Below, in pieces: positions 28,026 to 59,399 of a stretch of DNA of 64,000 nt (position 1 is its first letter; the number at the start of each line of letters is the position of its first letter). The DNA comes from Bacteroidales bacterium (lineage in GTDB: Bacteria; Bacteroidota; Bacteroidia; Bacteroidales; JAADJA01). Location of the stretch: NCBI GenBank assembly GCA_020052415.1, contig JAGVPB010000038.1, positions 3,693 to 67,692 on the forward strand. The letters run 5' to 3'. The translations under genes were made by a program, and so were the position numbers. Under the pieces are notes generated by a model. It did no database searches. It was given only the letters and a program-made list of their open reading frames with translations, and was not told the origin of the DNA.

Positions 28026-28094
28026 CAAAGGTCAGTCTTTTGAATCGCGAAAGCGTTACACAATTATTGAAAAGAGTTACATTATTCACACATT
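28026..28094 (-). promoter_or_regulatory. Stress-island promoter/operator module, copy A
   Basis: Plus-strand read: CAAAGG at 28026, GTTACACAATT at 28055, GTTACATTATTCACACATT at 28076-28094. It lies 63 nt upstream of the ATG at 27963. Confidence 0.7.
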
Positions 28095-28296
28095 TGAGAT
28101 CATTACCCGGAGACCATTGAAGCCATTAACGAATTTTCAAATAATAACAATTTGAAATATAGTTTGGTTCAAGACCATAAAATATTCCGTGTGTGAGATT
28201 ATGAGAGCAATTGGTAAATATTGAAAATCCCGATCAGCCGGTATAAATGTTCGATTTCGAAAATGATCTGCTTAATCATCATTAATGTAGTATAAT

Positions 28297-28326
28297 AACT
28301 AACCCCGCGAATTCGCAGGGTTAGTT
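28297..28326. terminator. 15-bp-arm palindrome 3' of the OMP gene
   Basis: AACTAACCCCGCGAA/TTCGCAGGGTTAGTT with one mismatch, followed by TTTTAAAAAA. Confidence 0.55.
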
Positions 28327-28394
28327 TTAAAAAAGTGATTCGAAAATATACATAGTACCGTCAGCCTTTTTTGACAGACGGATGTTGATTCGGC

Positions 28395-29165
28395 TTATCG
28401 AAGTGCCGTACTTGCAGGTGTTTTGAAAAGGAAGCTGGAATTTGCCAACCTGGATTTATTTCTAAGCGGTCCTCCTTTAAAAGTATTTATATAATAACTT
28501 ACACCAACACTGATATAGGTATAAAAATCGTAATCGTTATTTTTTACATAATCATCCAGCCGGTCAGTCTGGCACCGTCTCAATGCAAGGTCGGCTGTGA
28601 CACCAAAATTAGAATTCAATTTATAATATATTCCGCCTCCAAAGAAATAAACAAACTCTGGTTTAGCTGCGTCCTGTTCAAAGTTTTTATATGGTCCTTC
28701 GTTCATTACCACTTTTGTAGTACTGTAATAAAACTGTCCTGCACCTGCATAACCGACCACGCCAAAGGCATGGTACGTATCTAACATAAAAAGGTCAACA
28801 AAATCAATACGGGCATGAATGTTATATTCAAACATTTTCGTGGTAAAAGAAATATCACCATTGTTTCCTTCAAGGTTTCCGGTAATCACCTGGCCGGAAA
28901 TGCCAATAGTCTCTCTGAAGATATATTTGGAAATAATAATACTCATAGCCAGCCCGCTTTCCTGGTTGAGTTTAGCGCTAATATCGGCATCGCTGAGACT
29001 TAAATCGCCAAAGTAAGATGCCAGGCCACCGTTAATATTTACCGACCATTTGGTCAGTATAACAGGGTGACTATCTCCACCCCATTTCTGAGTATAGCAT
29101 GAGGTCGAAATGAAAATTCCGACGATCAGGTTGCTCAGGGCTATTCGGAAAATTTTTGTTTTCAT
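28395..29165 (-). CDS. Outer-membrane beta-barrel protein (OmpW/porin-fold, unknown specificity)
   Basis: Signal peptide and an alternating hydrophobic pattern with aromatic girdle residues (YFGD, YAGAGQFYY, GGGIYYKL). Confidence 0.55.
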   Translation of the reverse strand: MKTKIFRIALSNLIVGIFISTSCYTQKWGGDSHPVILTKWSVNINGGLASYFGDLSLSDADISAKLNQESGLAMSIIISKYIFRETIGISGQVITGNLEGNNGDISFTTKMFEYNIHARIDFVDLFMLDTYHAFGVVGYAGAGQFYYSTTKVVMNEGPYKNFEQDAAKPEFVYFFGGGIYYKLNSNFGVTADLALRRCQTDRLDDYVKNNDYDFYTYISVGVSYYINTFKGGPLRNKSRLANSSFLFKTPASTALR

Positions 29166-29336
29166 AGCCTGAATGTTTTAATGGTTTTACAAATACAGAT
29201 TTTTAGCATTAAAAAGGCATAGTTCAATAGTATAATTTTCATGATCTGTTTATTAATAATAAGTGATTTTAAAAGTACCGTTTCACAGGCCTTCCTCCAA
29301 ACGCTCCAAACGGTGCCTGTTACAAAAAGCAGACGA

Positions 29337-29522
29337 TTAAAGCATTGCTATAATCCTGTTCATTTCTTCCTTTGATTTACCAAGCTTGATCTGGAGTCTT
29401 CCAAACATCTGTTCCTGCCGGCCTTCTTCAAACGACAGGTCATAGTTCGTTAAATTTGCAAAATCCTTCAGCAGTTTTGCTTTTTGCTTATTCCAGTTCC
29501 CTTTTGCTTCCCTTGTGTTCAT
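29337..29522 (-). CDS. csbD: CsbD-family stress protein (61 aa)
   Basis: The ATG at 29522 gives MNTREAKGNWNKQKAKLLKDFANLTNYDL...GRLQIKLGKSKEE. It is a paralog of 35457..35642. Confidence 0.8.
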   Translation of the reverse strand: MNTREAKGNWNKQKAKLLKDFANLTNYDLSFEEGRQEQMFGRLQIKLGKSKEEMNRIIAML

Positions 29523-29559
29523 TTTTTTTAATTTTATTTGTAAATAAATTTTTACGATG

Positions 29560-29628
29560 TAAAGGTATGTCACTCAATTCCGAAAAGCATTACACAATTA
29601 AATAAAAGAGTTACATCATTCGCACATT
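29560..29628 (-). promoter_or_regulatory. Stress-island promoter/operator module, copy B
   Basis: TAAAGG at 29560, ATTACACAATT at 29589, GTTACATCATTCGCACATT at 29610-29628. It lies 38 nt upstream of the ATG at 29522. Confidence 0.7.
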
Positions 29629-29770: not shown

Positions 29771-29869
29771 TCAGGCGAACAGGAGTAATAGAAGCAAGCC
29801 TAAAAATTGTGAGTAAAATAATATTTTCATGATGAATGCTTCATCTTTTTCAAATTGTTTTGTTTCCAT
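29771..29869 (-). CDS. Unannotated 32-aa small hydrophobic-tail peptide
   Basis: It is not in the ORF track because it is under 60 aa. My translation is METKQFEKDEAFIMKILFYSQFLGLLLLLLFA. The ATG is 37 nt downstream of module copy C and a hairpin follows the stop. Confidence 0.5.
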   Translation of the reverse strand: METKQFEKDEAFIMKILFYSQFLGLLLLLLFA

Positions 29870-29905: not shown

Positions 29906-29974
29906 TAAAGGTGATTCTATTTATTCCGGAAAGTATTACACAATTTAAGATAAGAGTTACATGATTCACACTTT
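29906..29974 (-). promoter_or_regulatory. Stress-island promoter/operator module, copy C
   Basis: TAAAGG at 29906, ATTACACAATT at 29935, GTTACATGATTCACACTTT at 29956-29974. Confidence 0.65.
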
Positions 29975-30008: not shown

Positions 30009-31850
30009 TTACTGATATCCTACAGGTGCAGGTTTTCCAATTACAAAATCCCTGAATCCGAAATCGGTTGTTTTAAATGAATTGACTTTGAAAATATCCT
30101 GCCCTATCCCTGGTATTATGGGATAAAATGCAATGGATATTTCAAAGGTGTTCACTATAAGGTAATCATTTTTAATTAAAACACCCAACCCTATTTGCGA
30201 ATATATCGTGCTGTTATTAAAACCTGTTCCTGCATCGCCTACCATGCCTAATGAGCAAACAAGGTAGGGACCAAAACGGAATCCGATAAAATTCCACGGG
30301 GCGTATGATTGTGTTTGAAGCCTGAAAATCCAGCGGCTGGTACCGGTTAGCGTAGGACTATTAAAGCCATCTATTCCGTTTCCGTCGTTAAGTGTTAAAC
30401 TTTCGTAGGTTAGCCGGTTTAAACCGATATCAAACTGTGTTTTTACAAACTGCCTGAATTTCCATTTCCCGATCTCAAACAGTCCTGTAAAATAATTAAC
30501 GCCTGCTATTAAAACCCCCTTTTCAGCATGGGAATCATTAAAAATAGATCCGTATTCGAAGTTGGAAGTCAGGTATCCCCACGGAAAATAATGTCCCAAT
30601 GAAATACGGCCTCCAAAATATAATTGTCCCTGATTATTTTTTTCCAGGTAGCCTCCTGTCAGGCTGTAAATTTTTCCAATTGGCACATCTTCAGTGATTC
30701 CAAACTGAAAAATATATTTGTCCTGTACATATTTTCGTCTGGATATTCCAACGCTTGCCAGGTAAAAATTATCGTTGGAAAACACATGGAGGGTGTCAAT
30801 GAGTTCAATTGGTTTTTCGAGAAAGCGGATTCGCATAAAACGAACAGCAGAAATGAAGTTGGTTGTCCGGTCCTTTTCGGTATTACCTTTAAATATTCGA
30901 AAGGCATGGCCAGCCCAATAATCTTGTGAATTGAATTTAAATCTTTGAAGAATAATAAGTGAATCTGTTGTTTGAATGGAATCAGTGCGAAATTGCTGGG
31001 TAAAATTTACACCACCGGCCCACTTTGCAAAGGGAGAAAAAAACGGACGGTCAATAGACAAACTTTTGGTAAAATTTCCGAATTCATCATTGCCATAAAT
31101 GATGGTAGTATTAATATACGTATTGCGAATGTTGGGAATAAAGTATTTTGTATTGTAAGCATCATCTCCGGTGTTGGGATACCAGGTGTAGGCATTTTTA
31201 AATTCGTGTCCAAATCCCAGAAAATTTTTGTCGGTTAATTTTATTGTGGCCTGGGATGCAGACACTGTCACAACGGGCAAAATGCTCCAATTATCCAATT
31301 CGCGGATAAAAATATCCACCGAGTCAGAGTTTTTTGAAACGGCTTTCACGAAAAATGAAACATCCCGTACATAAGGCTGGTTACGTACCAGTCGTTCTGA
31401 TTCTTTAACTAGCAACGAATCGAAAGGTTGATTTTGACGGATAACCAATAGGTTCCGAATGGTGATCGGCTGGGATTTTATATGAAACTTATTACCGGTT
31501 CTTATAAGAAAGTTTCGCGATGAAATCATTGTATCGCCAATTGTATAGCCAAAGGGATCCATCGTTTCGATGTTTATTTGCCGGATAATTTTCCCTTCGA
31601 AAGTGCTGTATGGTTTTTGAATCAGCTTTTTATAAACTTTCTTTTTACCATCTTTCTTTTTTATAGCGGGGGCAACCGGTTTAAAAAACAGCCCATACAT
31701 AAACTTCGTGAATTTGCTCCGTTTGGAATAAGCTTCAATGTTCTCATAAAGACGGGTAGAATCTGTTTTAACAGCAGGTTGTTGCGCAAATGCAATATCA
31801 TAAGTTAAGACCGAAACAAATAAAAGTATGAAAATATTTTTGAATCCCAT
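30009..31850 (-). CDS. Large outer-membrane protein, possibly Omp85/BamA-TamA-like
   Basis: Signal peptide, a POTRA-like N-terminal segment (GKIIRQINIETMDPFG) and a long beta-rich C-terminus. The family call is uncertain. Confidence 0.45.
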   Translation of the reverse strand: MGFKNIFILLFVSVLTYDIAFAQQPAVKTDSTRLYENIEAYSKRSKFTKFMYGLFFKPVAPAIKKKDGKKKVYKKLIQKPYSTFEGKIIRQINIETMDPFGYTIGDTMISSRNFLIRTGNKFHIKSQPITIRNLLVIRQNQPFDSLLVKESERLVRNQPYVRDVSFFVKAVSKNSDSVDIFIRELDNWSILPVVTVSASQATIKLTDKNFLGFGHEFKNAYTWYPNTGDDAYNTKYFIPNIRNTYINTTIIYGNDEFGNFTKSLSIDRPFFSPFAKWAGGVNFTQQFRTDSIQTTDSLIILQRFKFNSQDYWAGHAFRIFKGNTEKDRTTNFISAVRFMRIRFLEKPIELIDTLHVFSNDNFYLASVGISRRKYVQDKYIFQFGITEDVPIGKIYSLTGGYLEKNNQGQLYFGGRISLGHYFPWGYLTSNFEYGSIFNDSHAEKGVLIAGVNYFTGLFEIGKWKFRQFVKTQFDIGLNRLTYESLTLNDGNGIDGFNSPTLTGTSRWIFRLQTQSYAPWNFIGFRFGPYLVCSLGMVGDAGTGFNNSTIYSQIGLGVLIKNDYLIVNTFEISIAFYPIIPGIGQDIFKVNSFKTTDFGFRDFVIGKPAPVGYQ

Positions 31851-31906: not shown

Positions 31907-32716
31907 TCACAGGGCAGAAATGAAATTGGATATATGCTGATTAAATTCGTCGGGTTGTTCAAGATTCGATAAATGACCTGCTTTATCTATGCTGTATAAC
32001 CTTGAATTTAAAATGTTGCATTGTAAAAACTGAGCCTGATCCGGTGGCGTGATGGTATCTTCTTTTCCACACAGGATTAAGGAAGGAACTTTAATATCCT
32101 TAAGAGAAGAACACATTTCCCGGCGCTGAGCAATTGCAATTAGTGTCCCTGTAATTGTTTTCGTATCCGTTGATAGAATGACATTTTTTATTTTTTCAAC
32201 CAGGTCATTTTTATCATTCAAAGTTTCTTCACAAAAAATATTTTTGACAAAACCTTTGACAAAGTCTTCTAATCCGCCTGCCTCTATTTGCTGAATTGTA
32301 GTATAGCGCTTCTCTTTTGCCGCGTCCGAATCGGCAATACATTGGGTATCACTTAAAATGATGGCTTCAAATCTTTCCGGATAACGGCTTATAGCATTCA
32401 ATAAAATATATCCTCCCATTGACAGGCCGCAAACAATAGCTTTGTTTATCTGCAATGCATCTAAAAGATTAATTAAATCATCAGCAAATAAACTAATGCT
32501 CACTTCTTCTGTACCTGCAGTTGATTTTCCAAAGCCACGGATATCATAGGCAATAACACGGTGTGTCCTTCTGAAAAAGTCAAGTTGAGGTTGCCACATT
32601 GATTTGTCAAAAGGAAATCCGTGAATGAATAATATGGGTAAATGACCAATTCCCTGATCATCATAACTAAGGACTACCCCATTGACCTGAAATGTTTTAT
32701 CTTTTATGACTAACAT
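31907..32716 (-). CDS. Alpha/beta hydrolase
   Basis: HGFPFDKSMW, the nucleophile elbow GLSMGG, and a C-terminal GHLSNLEQP histidine region. Confidence 0.8.
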   Translation of the reverse strand: MLVIKDKTFQVNGVVLSYDDQGIGHLPILFIHGFPFDKSMWQPQLDFFRRTHRVIAYDIRGFGKSTAGTEEVSISLFADDLINLLDALQINKAIVCGLSMGGYILLNAISRYPERFEAIILSDTQCIADSDAAKEKRYTTIQQIEAGGLEDFVKGFVKNIFCEETLNDKNDLVEKIKNVILSTDTKTITGTLIAIAQRREMCSSLKDIKVPSLILCGKEDTITPPDQAQFLQCNILNSRLYSIDKAGHLSNLEQPDEFNQHISNFISAL

Positions 32717-32746: not shown

Positions 32747-33691
32747 TTATTTCTTTTCTGTTTTATTTTCTTTATCCTTTGCTGCTGCTGTCTCTGCTTC
32801 TGCTTTTAATTTTTTATTATAATATCCTCTGAAAAATATATTGTGTTTGAGCGCTTCCATATTCTCATCCAAACCTTTTGTGCTGCTGTTCAGGTTTTGC
32901 ATGGTCTGGCTCAAATTTGTCGCAATGGTCGTATCCTGGATAATCTTTGTAAATGTTCCATTTTCATCATTTACCTTTAGCATTATTTCTTCAAGCTGTT
33001 GCGAAAACACTTCAGCATTACCTGTTGTTACTTTAAGGCTGCCCGTAATGGAAGATACATCCTGCCGGACTGCCCCCATAGTTTCATCTAATCCAATAGA
33101 TGTTTCTTTCAGATTCTCAATGGTCTCATATAGATTTTTCGCTATGGTTGAGTCATGGATTAATCTGCCAAGCGTGCCTTTACCGCTGTTTATTTTAATC
33201 ATAACCTCTGCGAGTTCCTGGGTAATGATTTCAGCATTACTTGCAGTTCCCTGTAAACTTGCCATGATGGCATCCGTCTCAATCGGCTCCACAGATGAAA
33301 TTTCCTGCCCTTCCTTTGCTGGTGCAGCATCGGAGCTACCCTGTGTGATAACCAATAGCCGGTCGCCTATAAGACCTTCTGAACCTATGGCCACGACACA
33401 GTCCGATTTGATAAACTGCTTAACATCTTTCTTAATCAGCATTTCAACCCTTACCATTGAATCATTGATAATATTGATATTGTCAACAGTGCCAACATTA
33501 ATTCCAGTGAACCGGATATTATTTCCAACCTGTAATCCGCTTACGTTATAGAATGTAGCAGTTAGCTTAAAAACAGGATTGAATAAATTTTTTTGTTTTC
33601 CGATGATAAATATGGCAATAACAAAAAGCGCTAATCCTCCTGCAACAAACAACCCTAACCGTATTTTAAATTTTTGTGTGTGCGTTTCCAT
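32747..33691 (-). CDS. mlaD: MlaD/MCE-family substrate-binding protein
   Basis: N-terminal TM, the MCE block VSGLQVGNNIRFTGINVGTVDNI, and a long helical repeat tail. Confidence 0.75.
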   Translation of the reverse strand: METHTQKFKIRLGLFVAGGLALFVIAIFIIGKQKNLFNPVFKLTATFYNVSGLQVGNNIRFTGINVGTVDNINIINDSMVRVEMLIKKDVKQFIKSDCVVAIGSEGLIGDRLLVITQGSSDAAPAKEGQEISSVEPIETDAIMASLQGTASNAEIITQELAEVMIKINSGKGTLGRLIHDSTIAKNLYETIENLKETSIGLDETMGAVRQDVSSITGSLKVTTGNAEVFSQQLEEIMLKVNDENGTFTKIIQDTTIATNLSQTMQNLNSSTKGLDENMEALKHNIFFRGYYNKKLKAEAETAAAKDKENKTEKK

Positions 33692-33734: not shown

Positions 33735-34517
33735 TCATTTGAAAAAAGAATTAATTAATGGATCGGTTGATTCTTTAAATTCCTCAACTTTTCCTTCTTT
33801 GTACACCTCACCATCCTCTAACATGATAATCCTGTTTGCTGTGGTAAGGGCGCATTTAATATCATGGGTGATGATGATGGAAGAAGTTTTATACTTTTTC
33901 TGAACATCATTGATCAGGGCGCTTATTTCATCTGAAGTAACCGGGTCAAGCCCGGTAGTAGGTTCGTCGTACAGAATGATCATCGGATCCACAACAATGG
34001 TACGTGCCAGGCTTATTCGTTTTCGCATGCCACCCGAAAGTTGTGAGGGCATTTTATGCAGTGCATCAGCGAGACCGACATTTTCCAAAACTTCGTTTAT
34101 TTTTTCTTTAATCTCTTTTTCAGTACGTTTCTTTTTTACTCTTCGCAATGGAAATTCCAGGTTCTGTTTCACCGTCATGGAATCATACAATGCACCGCTT
34201 TGAAAAAGGAAACCTATTTTAAGTCTCAACTCACCCAATTCTTTTCTTTTTAACTGAGGCACATTTTTATCAAACACTTTAATTGTTCCGCCATCAGCAC
34301 TTAACAGGCCAACAATGCACTTTATTAAAACAGATTTGCCGGTGCCGGATTTACCAACCACCGCCAAATTTTCGCCTTTATAAAGATTTAGAGAAACATT
34401 CCTTAGTACCTCCTGGTTTCCAAATGCTTTCCTGAGATTATTTATTTCAATAACCGGTTCCTTGCTGTTCGAAATAACAGTGGCGTTCTTTATTGTATCT
34501 GTTTGAGTCGTGTTCAT
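33735..34517 (-). CDS. mlaF: ABC transporter ATP-binding protein (MlaF-like)
   Basis: Walker A GKSGTGKS, signature LSGGMRKR and Walker B ILYDEPTTGLD. Confidence 0.85.
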   Translation of the reverse strand: MNTTQTDTIKNATVISNSKEPVIEINNLRKAFGNQEVLRNVSLNLYKGENLAVVGKSGTGKSVLIKCIVGLLSADGGTIKVFDKNVPQLKRKELGELRLKIGFLFQSGALYDSMTVKQNLEFPLRRVKKKRTEKEIKEKINEVLENVGLADALHKMPSQLSGGMRKRISLARTIVVDPMIILYDEPTTGLDPVTSDEISALINDVQKKYKTSSIIITHDIKCALTTANRIIMLEDGEVYKEGKVEEFKESTDPLINSFFK

Positions 34518-35368
34518 GATATCAGCATATCGGTTATTTGTACTGCAATCATATCAACAATGATCACGAGGAGCGAGGCCAACACTACAGCGGAATTTGC
34601 AGCAATGCCTACGCTTTCTGTCCCGCGCCCGGCATGGTATCCTTTATAGCAACCCACTATTCCGATTACTGCCCCGAAAAAAAAGGTTTTTATGACAGCA
34701 GGAATAAAATCTATAAACTCTACAGGGCTGAATGCCTGTGAGAAAAACAGGGTAAATGTTACATCTCCTTTAATATTCGCACCCGCCCAGCTCCCTAATA
34801 TACCAAGTCCATCGGCATATAAAACCAATAACGGGATCATAAGTGTCGCGGCTAACACTCTTGTTACAACTAAAAACCGTATAGGATTGGTGGAAGATAC
34901 TTCCATGGCATCTATCTGTTCGGTCACTTTCATGGAACCTAACTCTGCTCCCATGCCAGAACCAATTTTCCCTGCGCATATCAGCGCTGTAATAACAGGG
35001 CCCATTTCCCTAATGAGAGATATTGCCACCATTCCAGGAAGCATCGTCACTGCTCCGAAATCAACTAATACCGGCCGGGATTGAATGGTAAGCACCAAAC
35101 CCATGATGGTACCTGTGATTGATATTAGCGGTAAGGATTTATATCCGATTTGAAAACACTGACGCAAAAATTCTTTAAATTCAAAATTGCGTGAAAATGT
35201 TTCCCGGAAAATCCGCATGATAAATAAAAAAACATCAGCAAACTCAGTTAAAAAATTGCTTGCTTGTTCAGTTTTTACCAAGGTCTTTTCGCTAAGCCTG
35301 CTCAATGATTGTGCAGTAGCATGCCGAACCTTCGGGATTACCTTAATGACAGGAATGAATTTTTTCAT
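34514..35368 (-). CDS. mlaE: ABC transporter permease (MlaE-like)
   Basis: Typical MlaE layout (FLRQCFQIGYKSLPLISITG..., MKVTEQIDAMEV). There is a 4-bp overlap with the ATPase gene. Confidence 0.8.
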   Translation of the reverse strand: MKKFIPVIKVIPKVRHATAQSLSRLSEKTLVKTEQASNFLTEFADVFLFIMRIFRETFSRNFEFKEFLRQCFQIGYKSLPLISITGTIMGLVLTIQSRPVLVDFGAVTMLPGMVAISLIREMGPVITALICAGKIGSGMGAELGSMKVTEQIDAMEVSSTNPIRFLVVTRVLAATLMIPLLVLYADGLGILGSWAGANIKGDVTFTLFFSQAFSPVEFIDFIPAVIKTFFFGAVIGIVGCYKGYHAGRGTESVGIAANSAVVLASLLVIIVDMIAVQITDMLIS

Positions 35369-35642: not shown

Positions 35643-35699
35643 TTTTTTGAGATTTAATTCCTGCGACTGGCAGGACAGGTGTGAAATTTTTTCACCTTA

Positions 35700-35768
35700 C
35701 AAAGGTGGGTTCATTTGTACCGGAAAGCATTACACAATTACAAAAAAGAGTTACATTATTCACACATT
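35700..35768 (-). promoter_or_regulatory. Stress-island promoter/operator module, copy D
   Basis: CAAAGG at 35700, ATTACACAATT at 35729, GTTACATTATTCACACATT at 35750-35768. It lies 58 nt upstream of the ATG at 35642. Confidence 0.7.
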
Positions 35769-37055: not shown

Positions 37056-37124
37056 CAAAGGTGGGTTCATTAATACCTGAATGCGTTACACAATTGCAGA
37101 AAAGATTTACATCATTCACACATT
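37056..37124 (-). promoter_or_regulatory. Stress-island promoter/operator module, copy E
   Basis: CAAAGG at 37056, GTTACACAATT at 37085, TTTACATCATTCACACATT at 37106-37124. It lies 62 nt upstream of the ATG at 36994. Confidence 0.7.
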
Positions 37125-38458: not shown

Positions 38459-38526
38459 CAAAGGTGAGTACTTAAATTGCTGAAAGTATTACACAATTCC
38501 TGAAAAGAGTTACATCATTCACACAT
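38459..38526 (-). promoter_or_regulatory. Stress-island promoter/operator module, copy F
   Basis: CAAAGG at 38459, ATTACACAATT at 38488, GTTACATCATTCACACAT at 38509-38526. It lies 45 nt upstream of the ATG at 38414. Confidence 0.7.
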
Positions 38527-38532
38527 CAGGTA

Positions 38533-40560: not shown

Positions 40561-40633
40561 CAAATAAAAATAAGTTGCCCAACCACTGAAATCGTTACAT
40601 AATTTTGGAAATATTTTACATTATTCACACATT
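40561..40633 (-). promoter_or_regulatory. Stress-island promoter/operator module, copy G (variant spacing)
   Basis: GTTACATAATT at 40594 and TTTACATTATTCACACATT at 40615-40633. The -7-like CAAATA box is at 40561, giving offsets of 33/54 instead of 29/50. Confidence 0.55.
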
Positions 40634-42410: not shown

Positions 42411-42498
42411 CAAATGAATTTTGAGAGTACGAAATTAGGCTACCGGAGCACGGCAGGTGTTATATAACTATTAAAAAGATTTACATCATTCACACATT
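42411..42498 (-). promoter_or_regulatory. Stress-island promoter/operator module, copy H (degenerate proximal repeat)
   Basis: The distal box TTTACATCATTCACACATT at 42480-42498 is intact. The proximal repeat is degenerate (GTTATATAACTATT at 42459). The -7-like CAAATG box is at 42411. Confidence 0.5.
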
Positions 42499-46191: not shown

Positions 46192-46260
46192 GCAAAGTTT
46201 AATACTCTAATGATTAAAAACATTACACAATTACGGAAAAGAGTTACATGATTCACACAT
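46192..46260 (-). promoter_or_regulatory. Stress-island promoter/operator module, copy I
   Basis: CAAAGT at 46192, ATTACACAATT at 46221, GTTACATGATTCACACATT at 46242-46260. It lies 34 nt upstream of the ATG at 46158. Confidence 0.7.
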
Positions 46261-46340
46261 TTTCATCTGCGATATACTTTATAAATTAGGGCGGTTTCAG
46301 TCTGAACTTTTAGCCTGATTAATTCAACACAAACACTCAT

Positions 46341-48287: not shown

Positions 48288-48355
48288 CAAAGGTCAGATA
48301 TAGCAAGGCGGAATGTGTTACACAATTTATTAAAAAAGTTACATCTTTCACACAT
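48288..48355 (-). promoter_or_regulatory. Stress-island promoter/operator module, copy J
   Basis: CAAAGG at 48288, GTTACACAATT at 48317, GTTACATCTTTCACACAT at 48338-48355. It lies 28 nt upstream of the ATG at 48260. Confidence 0.7.
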
Positions 48356-48474
48356 ATTCAGGTAAAAATCAAAAGAAGCCATCCCGAATTGAGATGACTT
48401 CTTAAAAATTATTAATATTAACTAAGTCAAATCATTACAAATATTCTGGATAGTTCACAAGCGGTCGGAATGTT

Positions 48475-49545: not shown

Positions 49546-49614
49546 CAAAAGTCAGTCTGTTTATTCCGGAAAGCATTACACAATTAAAAAAAATAGTTAC
49601 ATCATTCACATATT
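49546..49614 (-). promoter_or_regulatory. Stress-island promoter/operator module, copy K
   Basis: CAAAAG at 49546, ATTACACAATT at 49575, GTTACATCATTCACATATT at 49596-49614. It lies 27 nt upstream of the ATG at 49519. Confidence 0.7.
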
Positions 49615-51259: not shown

Positions 51260-51269
51260 TGACTTGTTT

Positions 51270-52001
51270 ATGGCTCGCACAATAAAAATCGACAACGTTT
51301 TACAAAAACGGTTTTCAAAGATTGATAAAAAGAAAATAAAGGAAGGAACTAGAGAATTAAAAGTTTATTTCTTAATTGTTTGTGAAGGAGAAAAGACTGA
51401 ACCAAATTATTTTAAATCTTTTCCTTTGAATGTAGGTAGTTATGTATATGATTTAACATTTGATGGTGGAGGAATAAGCACAAAAAAAGTTGTTGAAAAG
51501 GCTATTGAACTAAGGGATAGTTCTACACAAAAGTATGATAGAGTCTGGGCAGTCTTCGACAAAGATAGGTTTCCTGTAAATCAATTTAATGGGGCAATTT
51601 CAAAAGCTGTTTCAAACAATATATTTTGCGCTTGGAGCAATGAAGCCTTTGAATTGTGGTATTTGCTGCATTTTTATAATCGAAATACTCCGATGTCTCG
51701 TAAAGATTACAAGAAGGCAATTGAAAGAGCCATTAATGATAAACTGGCAGGAAATAGAAGTAAAAAGACTAAGCCGTTTAAGTATTTAAAGAATAGTCAG
51801 GAAATGTATTCGATACTTCAAAAATATGGAAATCAAAATCAAGCAATAAAATGGGCAATAGCTATTGAATCTCAACATCATGGAGAAAACTATTCTTCGT
51901 ATAATCCATGTACAATGGTCTATAAATTAGTGAAAGAACTAAATGGAGATTCTCAAGATTTGAATTTTGAAATTCTTGAAAAATACAATAAAGGAGAATG
52001 A
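51270..52001 (+). CDS. RloB-like (TOPRIM-related) protein, partner of the ATPase
   Basis: YFLIVCEGEKTEPNYF, VWAVFDKDRF and CAWSNEAFELWYLLHF are the hallmark RloB blocks. The ATG at 51270 is preferred over the TTG at 51264. It starts 8 nt after the ATPase stop. Confidence 0.8.
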   Translation: MARTIKIDNVLQKRFSKIDKKKIKEGTRELKVYFLIVCEGEKTEPNYFKSFPLNVGSYVYDLTFDGGGISTKKVVEKAIELRDSSTQKYDRVWAVFDKDRFPVNQFNGAISKAVSNNIFCAWSNEAFELWYLLHFYNRNTPMSRKDYKKAIERAINDKLAGNRSKKTKPFKYLKNSQEMYSILQKYGNQNQAIKWAIAIESQHHGENYSSYNPCTMVYKLVKELNGDSQDLNFEILEKYNKGE

Positions 52002-52858: not shown

Positions 52859-53290
52859 TTACATCCGCTCCATGTACCAGTTCAATTCCTTTTCTATTTT
52901 TTGGTAATGGAAAATAGTGGTGATGATTTTTTGCAGGCGCACGAAGGCGGTTTCACTTTTTACAACATAATCAAAAGCCTTGTGGTGCATACAGTTTACA
53001 GCCACTTCAATTTTATCCTGCTGCGATAACATCACAACGGGAATGTCAGGATTGAATGCTTTAATTTTGTCTAACACTTCTATTCCGTTCATCGCGTTCT
53101 TATCAATTCCAGCCAGAAAATAATCTAAAATGATCACATCAGGGTTGTGCGATAAATTTTTAACGCAAAGTTCGCCGGTTGCAAATGTTTCAATGGCTAA
53201 ATCTGCATGCTGTAGAAAATCAATTTCCAGTGACTTTAAAAATACAGCATCATCATCTACCAGGAAAAGTTTTATTTTTTGGTTGTTCAT
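52859..53290 (-). CDS. Single-domain response regulator (REC)
   Basis: LFLVDDD...VIILDYFLAG...PVVMLSQQD. There is a 4-bp overlap with the upstream kinase gene. Confidence 0.85.
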   Translation of the reverse strand: MNNQKIKLFLVDDDAVFLKSLEIDFLQHADLAIETFATGELCVKNLSHNPDVIILDYFLAGIDKNAMNGIEVLDKIKAFNPDIPVVMLSQQDKIEVAVNCMHHKAFDYVVKSETAFVRLQKIITTIFHYQKIEKELNWYMERM

Positions 53291-55956
53291 TCGTTCGTGG
53301 TTTTAAGCAAATTAAATTCTTCTTCCAATTCCGTACATGCCTGTTTACAAACGATTTCTACTTGCTGAACCATGTCGGATATTCCCTGTTTGCCCGATTG
53401 GTCGGCATTCGGTTGTTGCTGTTTGATCGCAAATTCCTGGATTGCTTTTGCCATGTTTTCAAAGTCTTTGCCGATACCCATGATTGAAAAAGAAGGTATC
53501 ATTTTGTGTACTGAAGCGTGCAATGAATTCCAATCTTTGTCGTGCATGCTTTGTTTCATTGCGCTAATTAACGGAGGGGTTTGCTCCAGATAAAGCGAAA
53601 TCATTTCCATCATCAATTCCGGATTCGACTTAGTAAGAACACTCAAATAATTCAGGTCAACGCGTTTTAATTTTTTATTCTGATTATGTCCATTCCCTTT
53701 ATCTGCATTATTTTTAATATGCACAGATTTTTTTACCACCCTGACCATTTTATGGTATAATAATCTTTCATCTATCGGCTTCGCGATGTAATCATTCATA
53801 CCAATAGCTTTACATTTTGCTAAATCTACGGTGGTCACATCTGCAGTTAAAGCAATGATTGGGATTTTGGAATTCATTTTATTACGAATGTATTCCGTAG
53901 CTTCAAACCCATTCATTTCGGGCATTTGCAAGTCCATCAAAATTACATCGTAAGAGTTGGATTGTAGTTTTTCGATGGCTATTTTTCCATTGGCGGCAAT
54001 ATCGCATTCAAATCCGAAATCATCCAACAGCGTTCTCATTAATAATTGATTAAGCGGAATGTCTTCAGCCACCAATACTTTTATGTTTTTGATTTCCGTA
54101 TCCAGTTCCACGAGCCCTGCTTCTGATTCAGCATCAGCATTTGTTTTCAGGAAACTTAAAATAAAACTAAAGGAAGAACCCTTTCCAGGTTTACTTTTTA
54201 CCCGAATACTTCCGCCCTGCGGTTCTACCAATTGTTTAACAATGGCCAGTCCCAATCCGGTTCCGCCATACAACCTTGAAGTGCCGCTGGATGCCTGCTG
54301 AAAGTTGTCAAAAATTTTTCCCATTTTTTCATCAGGTATTCCAATTCCGGTGTCAGTAACAGCAAATTCAATGGTTGCATTCTCTTCATCTTCATTCAGC
54401 AAACGAACACTTACAGTAATTTTTCCTTTTGATGTGAATTTTACTGCATTACTCACCAGATTTAAAATAATCTGGTGCAAACGCACCGGGTCGCCAACCA
54501 ATACTTCAGGAATTCTGTTGTCGTATTCTTTTACCAGTATTAAATTCTTTTCCTGAATTTTAGTCTCAAACAAATGAAGCATGGCTGCAATGGATAACTT
54601 CAATTTAAAAGGTATTTGTTCAAATATCATTTTTCCTGCTTCTACTTTTGCCAGATCAAGTATATCGTTAATGAGTACGATTAATGCATCGCCACTCATT
54701 TTTATTGCTGCCAAATATTCTTTTTGTTTTGCTGACAAATCTGTTTTCAACAGCACTTTTGTAAATCCGATAATCGCATTCATAGGGGTGCGAATTTCAT
54801 GACTCATGTTTGACAAAAATTGCTGTTTTGCTTTCACAGCGCTTTCTGCTATTCGTGTAGCATTTTCGGCTTTTATTTTTGCTTCTTCAGCAATTCCTGT
54901 TGCCAGCTCGGCAAATACTTTTGCCTCAATCAATTCGGTTGCGATTTTTTTTTGGTCGGTAATATCTCTTGCAACTATCACCACACCCAATACATTTCCT
55001 TTATCATCTTTATAAACCGATCCATTGCATAAGACATCGGTAAGCTTACCATCCATTATAGTTAGGGGATAATCTACCACAAACCCTTTTGCAAAAACCT
55101 GTTGATAACTTTCGCGTGCTTTGTCGGGGTGAGTAAAATAATTAAAAAAATCTGTGCCTATTATTTTCTCACGTGATACTCCTGTTACTTTTACTGTTGC
55201 TTCATTCATATCGGTGATTTTTCCTTCAGGGCTAATCGTAAACAACGGGTCGCGGCTCGCTTCTATCAGGCTGAGAGAATATTGAGAAGCTAATTTTGCT
55301 GAATAGCTTAATGCCTCAAGTTCTTTATTTGTAATTTCCCGTTTTTCTTTCTCCTTGTTTTGAAAGGCAAGTTCTATGTCAGCGATGACCAACTCTGCGG
55401 CACGTTTTTCTTTCTCTCCTGTTTGAAATATAAGTTCTTTGTTAGCAATAAATAACTCTGCTGCACGCTTTTCTTTCTCATCGTTTTGAAATGCAAGTTC
55501 TTTGTTGGCAATGATTAACTCTGCTGCACGTTTTTCTTTCTCATCGTTTTGAAATGCAAGTTCTTTATTGGCAATTCGTAACTCTGTCGCCCCTTTTTGA
55601 TCGGCAATGCTTCTTGCAACTACAACGGCGCCAAGCACATTTCCCTTTTCACCTTTATAAACTGAGCCGTTAAATAACACATTTGTCAGCTTACCATCCA
55701 TTATGGTTAATGGAATATTTTTTACAAATCCTTTTGCAAATACTTCCTGATATACTTCACGTGCTTTTTGCGGTTCGGTAAAATAAATACCGAAATCGGA
55801 ACCTATCAGATTTTTACGTGTAATATCTGTAATTTCAATAAATGCCTGATTCATGTCAGTAATCCTGCCTTCAGCACTAATTGTGACCAGGGGATCCAGG
55901 CTTGCTTCTATCAAACTTCTGGCGTAATTTGAATCATGTGAATTTGTCCTATCCAT
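53287..55956 (-). CDS. Hybrid sensor histidine kinase (2x PAS with coiled-coil repeat linker - HisKA - HATPase_c - REC - HPt)
   Basis: It has two PAS modules and a 21-aa repeat ELIIANKELAFQNDEKEKRAA present about 4 times. Kinase motifs are FLSNMSHEIRTPMNAI and GGTGLGLAIVK. The receiver shows VLVAEDIPLNQ...ILMDLQMPEMNG, and the C-terminal HPt shows LHASVHKMIPSFSIMG. Confidence 0.9.
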   Translation of the reverse strand: MDRTNSHDSNYARSLIEASLDPLVTISAEGRITDMNQAFIEITDITRKNLIGSDFGIYFTEPQKAREVYQEVFAKGFVKNIPLTIMDGKLTNVLFNGSVYKGEKGNVLGAVVVARSIADQKGATELRIANKELAFQNDEKEKRAAELIIANKELAFQNDEKEKRAAELFIANKELIFQTGEKEKRAAELVIADIELAFQNKEKEKREITNKELEALSYSAKLASQYSLSLIEASRDPLFTISPEGKITDMNEATVKVTGVSREKIIGTDFFNYFTHPDKARESYQQVFAKGFVVDYPLTIMDGKLTDVLCNGSVYKDDKGNVLGVVIVARDITDQKKIATELIEAKVFAELATGIAEEAKIKAENATRIAESAVKAKQQFLSNMSHEIRTPMNAIIGFTKVLLKTDLSAKQKEYLAAIKMSGDALIVLINDILDLAKVEAGKMIFEQIPFKLKLSIAAMLHLFETKIQEKNLILVKEYDNRIPEVLVGDPVRLHQIILNLVSNAVKFTSKGKITVSVRLLNEDEENATIEFAVTDTGIGIPDEKMGKIFDNFQQASSGTSRLYGGTGLGLAIVKQLVEPQGGSIRVKSKPGKGSSFSFILSFLKTNADAESEAGLVELDTEIKNIKVLVAEDIPLNQLLMRTLLDDFGFECDIAANGKIAIEKLQSNSYDVILMDLQMPEMNGFEATEYIRNKMNSKIPIIALTADVTTVDLAKCKAIGMNDYIAKPIDERLLYHKMVRVVKKSVHIKNNADKGNGHNQNKKLKRVDLNYLSVLTKSNPELMMEMISLYLEQTPPLISAMKQSMHDKDWNSLHASVHKMIPSFSIMGIGKDFENMAKAIQEFAIKQQQPNADQSGKQGISDMVQQVEIVCKQACTELEEEFNLLKTTNE
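55328..55590. repeat. 63-bp in-frame tandem repeat (about 4 units) inside the kinase gene
   Basis: Units start at 55391, 55454, 55517 and 55580 (AACTCTGCTGCACGTTTTTCTTTCTCATCGTTTTGAAATGCAAGTTCTTTGTTGGCAATGATT). Confidence 0.85.
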
Positions 55957-55986: not shown

Positions 55987-56559
55987 TTAAATCATATTGC
56001 CAATTTCTTCAATCGGACTTCGCCTTTTTTTTTTTAATTTTTTAAAATGAGAAGGTGAGAGTCCGGTAACTTTTTTAAATTGATTGGATAAATGCGCAAC
56101 ACTGTTGTAATTCATCTTCCAGGCGATCCCCGTAATACTTAATTCGTCGTAAATGATCAATTCTTTTATCCGCTCTACTTTATGATGAATAATAAATTGC
56201 TCAATGGTGGTTCCTTGTACTTCCGAAAACAGGTTTGCCAGGTAGGTATAATCGTATTTCAATTTTTCACTTAAAAAATCAGAAAAATTTATTTTAATCA
56301 TTTTATCAGAATGGTGAACCATTTCGATAATTGTATTTTTTATTCTTTCAATCAATACAGCTCTCCTGTTGTTTATTAATTCAAAACCTGATTTGAGCAA
56401 CGCAATATTAAGTTGCTCCAGCTTTTCACCCGAGAGGTTTTCCATGATCTCAACTTCACCCATATCAACAATGATAAAATGCAGTCCAAGTTTTTTCAAC
56501 TCTTCCCGAACCGCCATTTTGCAGCGATTGCTCACCATGTATTTGATGTGCAACTTCAA
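55987..56559 (-). CDS. AraC/XylS-family transcriptional regulator with a small ferredoxin-like (HMA-like) N-terminal domain, paralog 1
   Basis: The N-terminus MKLHIKYMVSNRCKMAVREELKKLGL is a beta-alpha-beta-like module. The C-terminal double HTH is YTYLANLFSEVQGTTIEQFIIHHKVERIKELI...ITGIAWKMNYNSVAHLSNQFKKVTGLSPSHF. Confidence 0.8.
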   Translation of the reverse strand: MKLHIKYMVSNRCKMAVREELKKLGLHFIIVDMGEVEIMENLSGEKLEQLNIALLKSGFELINNRRAVLIERIKNTIIEMVHHSDKMIKINFSDFLSEKLKYDYTYLANLFSEVQGTTIEQFIIHHKVERIKELIIYDELSITGIAWKMNYNSVAHLSNQFKKVTGLSPSHFKKLKKKRRSPIEEIGNMI

Positions 56560-56587: not shown

Positions 56588-56656
56588 CAAAGGTGTATGC
56601 CTTTGACTGGAAATAAGTAATTTAATTAAAAATAAAAGTCACATAATACACACATT
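56588..56656 (-). promoter_or_regulatory. Stress-island promoter/operator module, copy L (degenerate proximal repeat)
   Basis: CAAAGG at 56588, GTAATTTAATT at 56617, GTCACATAATACACACATT at 56638-56656. It lies 29 nt upstream of the ATG at 56559. Confidence 0.6.
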
Positions 56657-56694: not shown

Positions 56695-57033
56695 TTATTC
56701 ATAGCCGCTTTTTATCACGGTCTGTAACATTTTAAACCGCCCGTTTGGCTTTACATAATTGGATGCATGGGCCGGTATTACAATTGATTGTCCCGTCAGC
56801 AGGAAATTGGATATTCCGTTGATTACGATTTCCGCTTTGCCGTCAATAATTTGAACAAAGGTATCGAAGGCCGTGGTTTTTTCGCTTAACCCTTCACCGC
56901 TGTCAAACGATATGACGCTGACATTTCCGGTTGACTTTTTTAATATCGTTTTGATGACCACTGAGTTTGCTATATATTCAATAATTTCAACTGTAATGTG
57001 CGCTTTTGCCTTTTCAAGTTCTAAATTTTCCAT
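56695..57033 (-). CDS. Cupin domain protein
   Basis: A 112-aa ORF. VISFDSGEGLSEKTTAFDTFVQIIDGKAEIVINGISNFLLTGQSIVIPA fits the cupin beta-barrel pattern. Confidence 0.65.
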   Translation of the reverse strand: MENLELEKAKAHITVEIIEYIANSVVIKTILKKSTGNVSVISFDSGEGLSEKTTAFDTFVQIIDGKAEIVINGISNFLLTGQSIVIPAHASNYVKPNGRFKMLQTVIKSGYE

Positions 57034-57120
57034 CTTGTAAGGTCTTTAATAAATTAAACTTTAATGATAAATATCAAAGCCTGGTTGTCAACCAGACTTT
57101 GATTAAGTTGGCAATTAAGC

Positions 57121-57318
57121 CTACTTCTTGTTATTGAGGGTAAAATCCTTCAGTGCTTTTCCAAGGGCATCCATATCATGGCTGAATTCAGTCTTGAAAG
57201 ATGTCCATTTGTCTGGTCCTTCATCTTTATAATCTGCCAGTTTATTTTTCAGAACGATGTTTTTTTGTTCCAGGTCATTGACCATTTTCTGCCTGGATGT
57301 TCTGTCTGCAGCTTCCAT
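57121..57318 (-). CDS. Small charged helical protein (65 aa)
   Basis: It is the first ORF after module copy M. No family recognised. Confidence 0.5.
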   Translation of the reverse strand: MEAADRTSRQKMVNDLEQKNIVLKNKLADYKDEGPDKWTSFKTEFSHDMDALGKALKDFTLNNKK

Positions 57319-57346
57319 TTTCGATATATCTGCTTTTATTTACATA

Positions 57347-57415
57347 CAAAGGTGCGTTCCTTTCGAAGGGAAATCGTTACATAATTCCGGAATTATGTTA
57401 CATCATTCACACATT
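57347..57415 (-). promoter_or_regulatory. Stress-island promoter/operator module, copy M
   Basis: CAAAGG at 57347, GTTACATAATT at 57376, GTTACATCATTCACACATT at 57397-57415. It lies 29 nt upstream of the ATG at 57318. Confidence 0.7.
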
Positions 57416-57591
57416 TTCGAGGGTGTTTCGTCTTTTATGCTTAAGCTGCTTGAAACAGGCGGGCGATAAACACGTAAGTTCTGAAAAAAGATTGGCTAAA
57501 CAGGTGTAGTCGTAGCTGAGCTTCCCCATGAGGTAATCGGAAAAATATAATTTGCGCACTACATCTTCAATTTATTTTTTTTCAGGTTTTG

Positions 57592-59295
57592 TTACTTCTT
57601 TTGTTTTTGATCCTTTTTGTCCTGTCTCTCTAATTTTTTGTTTTTATTTGCGATGGGTGTCACAATGGAAATGATGCCGGTTTTGAGACTATTCCAAAGG
57701 TAATTTATGATAAATTTATCCTTTCTCCGTTCAAAATGAATCATCCCTGTTGTATAATTGTTGTCACCGGGAAGATTCTTATTGTTAATTAATATATTAG
57801 CGCCTGCTGATAATCCTCCTGACTTTTTATCCGGATCATTTTGCTTTGAAACATCAACCCTGAGATTTTCATAGATCAAAGTAAGTTCTCCGTCCGATAC
57901 ATCATCCGTTGCTTTGAATCTGAATTTTGCCTGTTTTATATCGCCTGAAGTTATGGTAACCGGCAATAAACCTTCCAGCATTGGATTGAATTCAGCAGCA
58001 GCAACAGGATCAAGCGTACCGGCAACAGTGAAGTATTCGTCATTCCTTTCCAGGAAGAAAATCAGATGGGCGTTCAGGTCGCTCTTACCCATTATTTTTC
58101 CACTGAAATCCATTTCGAGATTGGATTTATTTTCTGTTGTCACCAAATCATTGGTAATATTGTAGGCTGTCAAATTGAAAGGATTAAAGAAAACTTTACC
58201 TGGCTTATCTGCACCTTCAATCATTTCGCCGTAAGCTAATTTCCCATTTTTAATCTTTACAGTATCGGTGATAAATTTTCGGGAAACTTTATTTAAGCCA
58301 CCTGTGATCAATACTTTGTGTTTGAAAGGCGCATCAGGTAATCTTTTATCACGATAGATATCAACATCGGGCTTTTCAATGCGGATGCAGTTAAAATGAA
58401 TCGCATTTCCGGCAGCAAGTTCATTTGCGTTGATTCCCATAACTATAATGCTGTCAACGGATATTGAAAACAAATCAGTATTATATTTGATTTGCCTGTT
58501 AAATTCTTCTTTGCTGTACTTTGGGATAAGTTTAAATTGTTCGATAGTTAAAGAGCTATCCTGAACATCAAACCGGATACCGGAAGTCGAAAGGGTGTAA
58601 TATTTTAGGGGGGTGTAGGTGATATAACGGCTATTCATATCAATGGCTGTAAAAGTAAGCGGAACCGTTTGCTGTATGGTTGCGGAATCTACTCTGATAT
58701 TTTCAACGGCAACCGATAAAGAATCAATTATAAATAGCGGTTCCTCAGGTTTCTCAACGCTATAATAAGTTAAACCAGCCGTCAGGATTTCAAAATAATT
58801 TACATTGATCGAATAGATCTTGCCCGGGATAACCTGTTCAAGATTACCGGATAAATTTCTATCAGCGGGCTTTGCCATTGGGTTGGATAAATAGGTGATC
58901 ATGATATTCTCAACTACAATTCTATCCATGATCATCCTTTTTGTTTTAAGAAATTCCACAATTTTAAATTCTGTAACCCGAAGCAATTCCGTTTTGGCCG
59001 AAATCAAACCTCTGATGGCAGCATTTTCAAGCAGGACTTTTGCAGTGTCGCGCGGGGTAATGGTCAGATTATCAATTTTAACCCTACCAATGAATATATT
59101 CAAATCTATATCATCAAAAATGATTTCATACAATCGTTTTGGATTTTTATTTAATTCCGCACTGATTTTGTGCTTTATGTAAGGTTCAAGAATGAATGTT
59201 AATCCTGTAAAAGCCACAAGACCTATTACAAATATTGTAATCAGGAATGTTTTAAATCTTTTCCCGGCTTTTGATTTCTTCTTCTTACGAGCCAT
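57592..59295 (-). CDS. Large N-terminally anchored envelope protein (AsmA/DUF748-like)
   Basis: A basic N-terminus and a single TM (FLITIFVIGLVAFTGLTFIL), followed by a long beta-rich region and a basic tail. The family call is of low certainty. Confidence 0.5.
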   Translation of the reverse strand: MARKKKKSKAGKRFKTFLITIFVIGLVAFTGLTFILEPYIKHKISAELNKNPKRLYEIIFDDIDLNIFIGRVKIDNLTITPRDTAKVLLENAAIRGLISAKTELLRVTEFKIVEFLKTKRMIMDRIVVENIMITYLSNPMAKPADRNLSGNLEQVIPGKIYSINVNYFEILTAGLTYYSVEKPEEPLFIIDSLSVAVENIRVDSATIQQTVPLTFTAIDMNSRYITYTPLKYYTLSTSGIRFDVQDSSLTIEQFKLIPKYSKEEFNRQIKYNTDLFSISVDSIIVMGINANELAAGNAIHFNCIRIEKPDVDIYRDKRLPDAPFKHKVLITGGLNKVSRKFITDTVKIKNGKLAYGEMIEGADKPGKVFFNPFNLTAYNITNDLVTTENKSNLEMDFSGKIMGKSDLNAHLIFFLERNDEYFTVAGTLDPVAAAEFNPMLEGLLPVTITSGDIKQAKFRFKATDDVSDGELTLIYENLRVDVSKQNDPDKKSGGLSAGANILINNKNLPGDNNYTTGMIHFERRKDKFIINYLWNSLKTGIISIVTPIANKNKKLERQDKKDQKQKK

Positions 59296-59330
59296 ATAGT
59301 TAGTAAAACTGTGAGGTATCTTTCACGTTA

Positions 59331-59399
59331 CAAAGGTGATTCCATTAATTCCGGCAAACGTTACACAATTAAAGAAAAGATTTGCGTAATTCACACATT
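59331..59399 (-). promoter_or_regulatory. Stress-island promoter/operator module, copy N
   Basis: CAAAGG at 59331, GTTACACAATT at 59360, TTTGCGTAATTCACACATT at 59381-59399. It lies 36 nt upstream of the ATG at 59295. The distal box overlaps the stop codon of the AraC paralog at 59391. Confidence 0.7.

Follow-up and report, generated by a model that had tools for sequence, protein, structure and literature searches.

The window analysed here is a 64,000-nt stretch of contig JAGVPB010000038.1 from a Bacteroidales bacterium (assembly GCA_020052415.1). It contains 15 copies of a 69-bp module, in which two direct repeats stand at a fixed distance ahead of a Bacteroidota-type -7 promoter box, and two paralogous AraC-type genes, A1 and A2, whose products are candidates for reading these repeats. 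Fourteen copies lie ahead of minus-strand genes and one is located on the opposite strand. On the coding strand, the module has the architecture AATGTGTGAATnATGTAAC-N10-AATTGTGTAAy-N21-nAnnTTTG, and the three conserved parts are called here the distal box, the proximal box and the -7 box. The copies and the genes behind them are as follows.

Module 1, 28026..28094, minus strand: distal box 28076-28094, proximal box 28055-28065, -7 box 28026-28033; ahead of the gene for a DUF5670/lmo0937 membrane protein, 27808-27963 (Pfam DUF5670, NCBIfam lmo0937_fam_TM).
Module 2, 29560..29628, minus strand: ahead of a CsbD-like gene, 29337-29522, then a 256-aa protein, 28395-29165.
Module 3, 29906..29974, minus strand: ahead of a 32-aa hydrophobic open reading frame (ORF), 29771-29869.
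Module 4, 35700..35768, minus strand: ahead of a CsbD-like gene, 35457-35642, then (Pfam) MlaE, 34514-35368, an ABC ATPase (MlaF), 33735-34517, and MlaD, 32747-33691, followed by a hydrolase, 31907-32716, and a 613-aa protein, 30009-31850.
Module 5, 37056..37124, minus strand: ahead of a lipoprotein-like protein, 36176-36994 (GTG start) or 36176-36958 (ATG start).
Module 6, 38459..38527, minus strand: ahead of a YceI-like protein, 37803-38414 (Pfam YceI).
Module 7, 40565..40633, minus strand: weaker -7 box TATTTTTA at 40565-40572; ahead of a 64-aa ORF, 40333-40527, then (Pfam) a DnaJ/CbpA-like protein, 39425-40327, a MerR_2 (CbpM-like) protein, 38965-39264, and a 125-aa protein, 38533-38910.
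Module 8, 42430..42498, minus strand: proximal box AGTTATATAAC, weaker -7 box TAATTTCG at 42430-42437; ahead of a 176-aa protein, 41850-42380, then a hydrolase, 40678-41532 (Pfam).
Module 9, 46193..46261, minus strand: ahead of a DUF6600 protein, 44947-46158, then (Pfam) a PAS hybrid histidine kinase, 43127-44869, and a Usp protein, 42628-43113.
Module 10, 48288..48356, minus strand: ahead of an OmpA/thrombospondin-repeat outer-membrane protein, 46716-48260 (Pfam).
Module 11, 49546..49614, minus strand: ahead of a 175-aa secreted Gly/Lys-rich protein, 48992-49519.
Module 12, 56588..56656, minus strand: the most degenerate operator, 38 bits; ahead of the operon of A2, a hybrid kinase and a receiver protein.
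Module 13, 57347..57415, minus strand: ahead of an sll1863-family stress protein, 57121-57318 (NCBIfam), then a cupin, 56695-57033.
Module 14, 59331..59399, minus strand: ahead of the gene for a DUF748/AsmA-like protein, 57592-59295; the module shares its first 9 nt with the end of A1 (final codons and stop).
Module 15, 9116..9185, plus strand: -7 box shifted by 1 nt; ahead of a DUF4382 lipoprotein, 9233-10042 (Pfam).

The core 18-mer of the distal box, TTACATNATTCACACATT, was searched for in the window with up to 3 mismatches. The search gave 16 matches against 0.63 expected; the match at 18123, with 3 mismatches, is not a module copy. For scoring, a 47-nt operator weight matrix was built from 12 phased copies, covering both boxes and the spacer between them and leaving out the -7 box. 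It found 15 sites in the window at 36-68 bits and no other score between 0 and 30 bits, and in 20 shuffles of the window there were no matches at 12 bits or above. An earlier sequence-only reading had described the repeated module and counted at least 14 copies; the module was recovered and its number is now 15. The sequence-level elements of that reading all held up when tested, with small errors in detail. Eleven of the 12 start positions that it listed as exactly phased were correct, and the copy given at 46192 begins at 46193. The two copies that it placed at 40561 and 42411 had been called variants. Both hold the distal-proximal phasing and have a -7-like box at the standard offset; CAAATAA and CAAATGA had been taken for these boxes in place of those listed above for modules 7 and 8.

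All 14 minus-strand copies could be aligned without gaps over 69 columns. TGTAAC is repeated with a 21-bp period in 15 of 15 copies, in agreement with the two direct repeats 21 bp apart that were originally described. The repeat unit is AATnnTGTAAC-n-CTTTy, its period corresponds to two helical turns, and the 19-bp distal box consists of two conserved blocks one helical turn (~10 bp) apart. The end of the proximal box is 21 nt from the -7 box and no TTG is present at 19-21 nt; as had been noted, there is no -33 element, and judged from the -7 box the proximal repeat sits where one would be expected. A start codon follows the -7 box at 26-62 nt. The previous figure was 27-63 nt to an ATG, and some of these starts are GTG or TTG. 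The copy at 37056 falls within the range only if the GTG at 36994 is the start (the first ATG is 97 nt off), and for the copy at 56588 the TTG at 56559 lies 28 nt and the first ATG 49 nt from the -7 box. A lone perfect proximal-type box, AATTGTGTAAC, is found at 48974-48984 on the minus strand, just past the end of gene 48992-49519. This box lacks a distal partner and may be a chance match or a remnant.

The occurrence of so many copies inside 31 kb could also point to a mobile or selfish repeat, similar to miniature inverted-repeat transposable elements (MITE) or repetitive extragenic palindromes, or to a structured RNA. We give virtually no credence to this explanation, which is contradicted by the data. 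The mean pairwise identity of the window copies is 0.86 in the distal box, 0.84 in the proximal box and 0.70 in the -7 box versus 0.59 and 0.47 in the two spacers, so the conservation of boxes and spacing with differing spacers was described correctly. In the 40-nt flanks the identity is 0.30-0.35, which is the random level, and the mobile-element reading is rejected because of it. In addition, no terminal inverted repeats or inverted arms were found in the module, its orientation and distance to the start codon are fixed, and many lineages, from more than one phylum, have it at orthologous positions. The structured-RNA reading is rejected because RNAalifold predicted no pairs in the 14 aligned modules; a scan of the window with Rfam also gave no matches. 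The modules were said to lie always upstream of minus-strand genes, which is true of 14 copies. Since the fifteenth, on the other strand, precedes the plus-strand DUF4382 gene, the orientation of the module tracks the gene and not the strand.

To follow the module beyond the window, two samples were used. The protein-seeded sample was fetched with an alignment of the AraC proteins and comprised 80 genome loci (1.28 Mb) from environmental Bacteroidales, Prolixibacteraceae, Chitinophagaceae, Flavobacteriia, Saprospiraceae, Cytophagales and Balneolales, the last of which belong to a separate phylum, Balneolota. The operator matrix gave 176 matches at 15 bits or above in this set, and none at this threshold in 5 dinucleotide shuffles of it. 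At least one motif was present in 68 of the 80 loci, and loci that gave no match above the threshold, e.g., in Flavobacterium and Balneolaceae, have diverged copies at the same positions. The -7 box reappeared in the logo at the same fixed offset, although it had been excluded from the matrix, which bears out its fixed distance. An ATG-led ORF begins 20-59 nt after the box at 68% of the sites versus 14% of random positions, so the random placement expected of a MITE-like element was not seen; at the conserved sites the start codon is a median of 40 nt after the -7 box. The second, motif-seeded sample was independent. It was obtained by scanning metagenome contigs with the distal box alone and yielded 129 sites and a set of 120 loci (659 kb). 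Here, the proximal box (up to 2 mismatches) was found at the exact offset at 118 of the 129 sites and the TTT of the -7 box at 108.

The families found behind the motif agree between the two samples. In the protein-seeded loci they are AraC (16), CsbD (10), YtxH (8), ice-binding proteins (7), outer-membrane beta-barrel proteins (6), OmpA (5), DUF6600 (4), DUF5670 (4), PAP2 (3), ferritin/Dps (2) and DJ-1 (2). In the motif-seeded loci they are CsbD (11), cupin (8), MlaE (7, immediately behind the motif), AraC (5), DUF5670 (5), OmpA (3) and others. The cupin of module 13 is conserved in 39 of the 80 and 18 of the 120 loci, and orthologues of the 175-aa protein of module 11 stand behind the motif in three loci (L001, L014 and L015). 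Targets of the general-stress type are CsbD, YtxH, DUF5670/lmo0937, YceI, Usp, sll1863-family, Dps, DJ-1, OmpA and CbpA/CbpM-like proteins; the set also includes MlaE, cupins and ice-binding proteins. Judged from sequence, the module is a conserved promoter-plus-operator, found in Bacteroidota at large and also in Balneolota ahead of genes of similar kinds, and the approximately 15 module-preceded genes of the window and their counterparts appear to form a general-stress-like set.

The genes of the candidate regulators and those connected with them are the following.

A1, 59391..59951, minus strand: 186-aa protein that starts at a GTG and combines an HMA-fold N-domain with an AraC DNA-binding domain of two helix-turn-helix (HTH) motifs (Pfam HTH_18).
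A2, 55987..56559, minus strand: paralog of A1 with a TTG start, first gene of the kinase/receiver operon.
Hybrid histidine kinase, 53287..55956, minus strand: cytoplasmic, PAS-PAS-HisKA-HATPase-REC-Hpt, downstream of A2 (Pfam).
Receiver-only response regulator, 52859..53290, minus strand: last gene of the A2 operon (Pfam).
Remnant of a third AraC paralog, 57407..57544, minus strand: has an internal deletion, as seen by comparison with the A1 alignment; its ...TLENV-stop end overlaps the operator of module 13.

A1 and A2 are 65% identical, and their DNA-binding domains are matched by Pfam HTH_18 and HTH_AraC. More than 8000 homologues of A1 were found, and the top 120, from sources named Emticicia, Saprospiraceae and Bacteroidota, are 75-88% identical to it. 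The recognition helices, YDYTYLANLFSE and YSSVAHLSNQFKK, are near-invariant across the phylum and almost the same in A1 and A2. This matches the near-invariance of the operator and is counted in favour of A1 and A2 as its readers. Both paralogs begin seven codons before the first Met at non-ATG codons (59931-59951 and 56539-56559). A peptide ahead of the first Met, KL[FYH]IKY, is conserved, which shows the GTG at 59951 and the TTG at 56559 to be the true starts. This peptide forms strand beta-1 of the HMA fold, and many 179-aa database entries of the family are probably annotated too short.

The structure of A1 was modelled with AlphaFold2 (AF2). When the KLFIKY extension was included, the model reached a predicted local distance difference test score (pLDDT) of 88 and a predicted template modelling score (pTM) of 0.81; when it was started at the internal Met, the N-domain was incomplete. 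The predicted fold is a beta-alpha-beta-beta-alpha-beta N-domain, a linker helix and a seven-helix AraC domain. In Foldseek searches, the DNA-binding domain matched MarA, SoxS, Rob, AdpA, AraC, AraT and YesN, and the N-domain matched the HMA metallochaperones Atx1, GolB, HAH1 and TTHA1718 with target-normalised TM-scores of 0.6-0.7. The Pfam HMA model does not pick up the N-domain of A1 or A2. At the HMA MxCxxC site, 95 homologues have MVSIRC, while 18, mostly from Chitinophagaceae (among them those of loci L021, L022, L026, L032, L034, L042 and L075), have MVCIRC; the second Cys is invariant. This split resembles that between 2-Cys and 1-Cys forms of thiol-switch regulators. A candidate for a thiol or metal switch is the invariant Cys of this degenerate site, which reads SxxC or, in some lineages, CxxC. 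The hybrid kinase carries four tandem 22-aa coiled-coil units (AELxIANKELAFQNDEKEKRA) between its two PAS domains, at residues ~125-215.

The AraC genes are linked to the motif in position and orientation. Of the 176 operator matches, 158 have the orientation of the AraC gene, and the matches are concentrated within 2 kb on its 3' side. Of 70 A1-type genes, 34 are closely followed by the motif on their 3' side and only 2 have it upstream; of 24 A2-type genes, 15 have it upstream and none downstream. The last codons of A1, GAA AAT GTG TGA (E-N-V-stop), are the start of the distal box of module 14, and an overlap of operator and A1 stop codon in this register occurs in 22 loci. Loci with this overlap (position 10532) include L001-L004, L007, L010, L015-L017, L019, L038, L055 and L071. 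The C-terminal tail of A1 (59391-59402) is conserved even though the model shows it as disordered (pLDDT below 50), and therefore its conservation may be imposed by the DNA site. The hybrid kinase follows A2, beside the AraC genes, in 38 of the 80 loci, and the receiver protein does so in 26, at 72% identity. In the motif-seeded sample an A1 or A2 homologue was present in 29 of the 120 loci and was the commonest neighbour among the window genes tested; a rough estimate, assuming about 2 A1/A2 genes per 5-Mb genome, gives well under one locus by chance.

It is conceivable that a different factor reads the promoter and operator, for example a LytTR response regulator, and that the AraC paralogs are members or neighbours of the regulon. 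We consider this unlikely. Direct repeats with a 21-bp period are also typical of LytTR sites such as those of AgrA and ComE, the window itself contains a LytTR regulator gene (13623-14321), and A2 is clearly a target of the motif. The LytTR operator consists of direct 9-bp repeats with a ~12-bp spacer; the 21-bp period is compatible with it, whereas the unit found here is ~17 bp and the distal one has an extra TGTGTG. However, LytTR homologues occur in just 2 of the 80 and 1 of the 120 motif-bearing loci, and A1 has no motif upstream, yet it is the gene most tightly linked to the motif. Among 150 ORFs sampled at random from the 3 kb around the motif, the only transcription-factor family to recur was AraC HTH_18. 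Two other regulators of the window were also rejected as readers. The GerE-type (LuxR/GerE) regulator has a homologue in none of the loci, and the MerR_2 gene 38965-39264, which lies inside the operon behind module 7, recurs in only 4 of the 80 and 1 of the 120 loci.

AraC, XylS and RhaS act at tandem direct repeats overlapping the -35 element. Because the geometry of the module matches this arrangement, we propose that it is an activator-dependent promoter of the housekeeping sigma factor, with class II-type activation, whose repeats are read by the HMA-AraC proteins A1 and/or A2, and we assign this reading a probability of roughly 0.65. The sigma-A -7 box (nAnnTTTG) spans -12 to -5, with its G at -5 (PMC9723704). 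With the box placed in this way, which also sets the putative start site, the distal site AATGTGTGAATnATGTAAC would lie at about -73 to -55 and the proximal site AATTGTGTAAy at about -44 to -34, where it would substitute for the missing -33 TTG. One two-HTH domain would occupy each repeat, as expected from the two blocks one turn apart in the distal box, and the bound A1 and/or A2 would recruit RNA polymerase as AraC, XylS and RhaS do. A1 has a canonical TTG-N19-TATATTTG promoter and no operator, and would be a constitutively made sensor. A2, by contrast, is among the targets and shares an operon with the kinase and the receiver, which suggests a feedback and signal-input loop; these three genes would form an inducible module for both functions. 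The output would comprise CsbD, YtxH, lmo0937, YceI, Usp, sll1863-like, OmpA, Mla, CbpA/CbpM-like, cupin, Dps and DJ-1 proteins.

The same sites could serve repression. A1 and/or A2 would then be repressors or anti-activators, and the near-consensus -7 box would give constitutive transcription, released under stress. The -7 box is indeed near consensus in most copies, the -33 element is dispensable in many Bacteroidota promoters, and two paralogs permit antagonism, as in some AraC pairs. On the other hand, sites at about -73 to -34 are in the classic activator position, while repressor sites mostly overlap the -10 region or the start site, and AraC-family proteins are mainly activators. The promoter of A1 retains its -33 TTG, whereas the regulon promoters are uniformly without it. 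Repression by A1 or A2 is, in our judgement, quite improbable.

Direct recognition of an extended promoter by an alternative sigma factor of the extracytoplasmic function (ECF) type is contradicted by the data, and we regard it as extremely improbable. GTAAC resembles the -35 element of some ECF promoters, and ECF sigma genes stand behind the motif in 2 loci. However, the distance from GTAAC to TTTG is ~25 nt versus 16-17 for ECF promoters, the downstream element is the sigma-A type TAnnTTTG, and a conserved upstream stretch of 40 bp that contains two phased repeats is unlike a sigma site. In the 80 and 120 loci and the 150-ORF census, there was no sigma factor gene consistently linked to the motif.

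Several points weigh against activation through A1 and A2. Adjacency of the AraC genes is ambiguous and could mean regulon membership instead of control, because the genes of the regulon are grouped in islands and A2 clearly belongs to the targets. The operator varies only from TGTAAC to TATAAC and the recognition helices are near-invariant, so a test of operator/helix co-variation is uninformative, both sides being too conserved. The -33 element is weakly conserved in Bacteroidota generally, and its absence is for this reason weak evidence of activator dependence. The 21-bp direct-repeat geometry also fits LytTR regulators. Finally, a second conserved element at +1 in some promoters may mean that another factor is involved.

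This second element is the palindrome GTGA-N7-9-TCAC, which follows the -7 box in 40 of 297 operator promoters and in none of the shuffles. Its spacer is N8 in 35 of 39 tabulated cases. The distance from the -7 box to its start is exactly 4 nt in 30 cases and 7 nt in 9, i.e., it begins at about +1, and roughly three-quarters of all GTGA-TCAC palindromes in 2 Mb of loci sit at operator promoters. A second, co-varying hairpin (CCGCCAGnnGCGG and variants) often follows, mostly before CsbD genes. The element may form a stem-loop at the 5' end of the mRNA, or it may be bound by a second factor. GTGA-N8-TCAC was also seen in L009, L048, L060, L066, L089, L098, L127 and other loci. In the window it is found in four regions.

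~27985-28021: GTGA-N8-TCAC region behind module 1.
35654-35696: GTGA-N8-TCAC region behind module 4.
37013-37052: GTGA-N8-TCAC region behind module 5.
59311-59327: GTGA-N8-TCAC region behind module 14.

The proposed system was compared with known ones. AraC (I1-I2 at araBAD), XylS (Pm), RhaS/RhaR and MelR also use two direct repeats with a period of ~21 bp. In the AraC/XylS systems the proximal site overlaps -35/-33, as it would in the module, and, as for A1, the two-HTH domain follows a small N-domain and the regulator gene adjoins its targets, which for A1 are putative. A1 and A2 differ from them in having an HMA (ferredoxin-like) N-domain of ~65 aa in place of a cupin/sugar-binding one. The module differs in its Bacteroidota -33/-7 promoter and in having at least 15 stress-type targets versus one catabolic operon, and its binding is predicted. 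MarA, SoxS and Rob share with A1 and A2 the AraC-type domain and, on the proposed reading, a stress regulon of many promoters, and they are structural matches to A1, ranked after 3mkl, AraT and YesN. The marbox resembles the 19-bp distal box in its two conserved blocks ~10 bp apart. However, marboxes are single monomer sites in either orientation and at variable distance, whereas the module has two rigidly phased sites of unrelated sequence in one orientation. GadX and GadW of the acid fitness island of E. coli are likewise two paralogous AraC-family regulators in a stress island, which likely recognise the same sites and of which one is under control of the circuit, as may be the case for A1 and A2; they differ in N-domain, operator and phylum.

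The response regulators YesN and AraT are the best matches to the A1/A2 DNA-binding domain in both sequence and structure. They have a fused REC domain and A1 and A2 have none, while the A2 operon includes a kinase and a separate receiver; a link between this receiver and A1 or A2 is speculation. The A1 N-domain has the beta-alpha-beta-beta-alpha-beta order of the HMA metallochaperones Atx1, CopZ, GolB and HAH1, and MxCxxC is retained in 18 homologues. Unlike in these proteins, it is fused to a DNA-binding domain, and the first Cys is replaced by Ser in 95 homologues. The regulons of SigB (Bacillus/Listeria), RpoS and EcfG-PhyR share with the set described here CsbD, YtxH, lmo0937, Dps, Usp, CbpA/CbpM-like, YceI and OmpA-like proteins. 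They use an alternative -35/-10 pair, whereas the module appears to be a transcription-factor operator on a sigma-A type promoter.

Other features of the window were recorded as side observations.

49997-52001, plus strand: AAA_21 ATPase and RloB-like pair, a candidate defence module that interrupts the stress island on the opposite strand; no homologues of the pair were found in any related locus.
60262-63305, plus strand: CheB-CheR-PAS fusion, then a PAS protein, divergent from A1 and located beside AraC genes in 5-6 loci.
21771-27054, minus strand: operon immediately downstream of the module 1 DUF5670 gene; it encodes an AI-2E-family transporter, a GH130 phosphorylase, a 786-aa GT4 glycosyltransferase and two small membrane proteins, is conserved close to AraC genes in 8-14 loci, and could produce a compatible solute or polysaccharide.
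8-7969, plus strand: 2653-aa ORF, outside the island and unrelated to the motif.
14752-17211, minus strand: 819-aa multihaem-cytochrome-like protein, outside the island and unrelated to the motif.

The operator, the protein subfamily and a general stress regulator of this kind in Bacteroidota were not found in the searchable literature; subscription journals lie outside it and, because they were not covered, this absence is not proof of novelty. No counterpart of RpoS, SigB or EcfG is known to have been described in Bacteroidota, and none turned up in the searchable literature. A promoter study of F. psychrophilum gave sigma motifs only. What is new here is the candidate regulator subfamily and its predicted regulon, while an AraC-type operator-promoter is of a kind already known.

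The sharply defined, phylum-wide operator gives an in-silico regulon of stress genes together with a specific candidate regulator, and it offers a ready experimental handle. We put forward tentatively, and with more doubt than conviction, that the module with A1 and A2 may be the missing master switch of the general stress response in Bacteroidota and Balneolota. The switch would be an activator working on housekeeping-sigma promoters and not an alternative sigma factor, and its presumed inducing signals would enter through the HMA thiol or metal switch and through a phosphorelay of the hybrid kinase and the free receiver acting on A2. An HMA-fold sensor domain would also be added to the AraC family, and the module would provide a stress-responsive promoter part for the genetics of environmental Bacteroidota.

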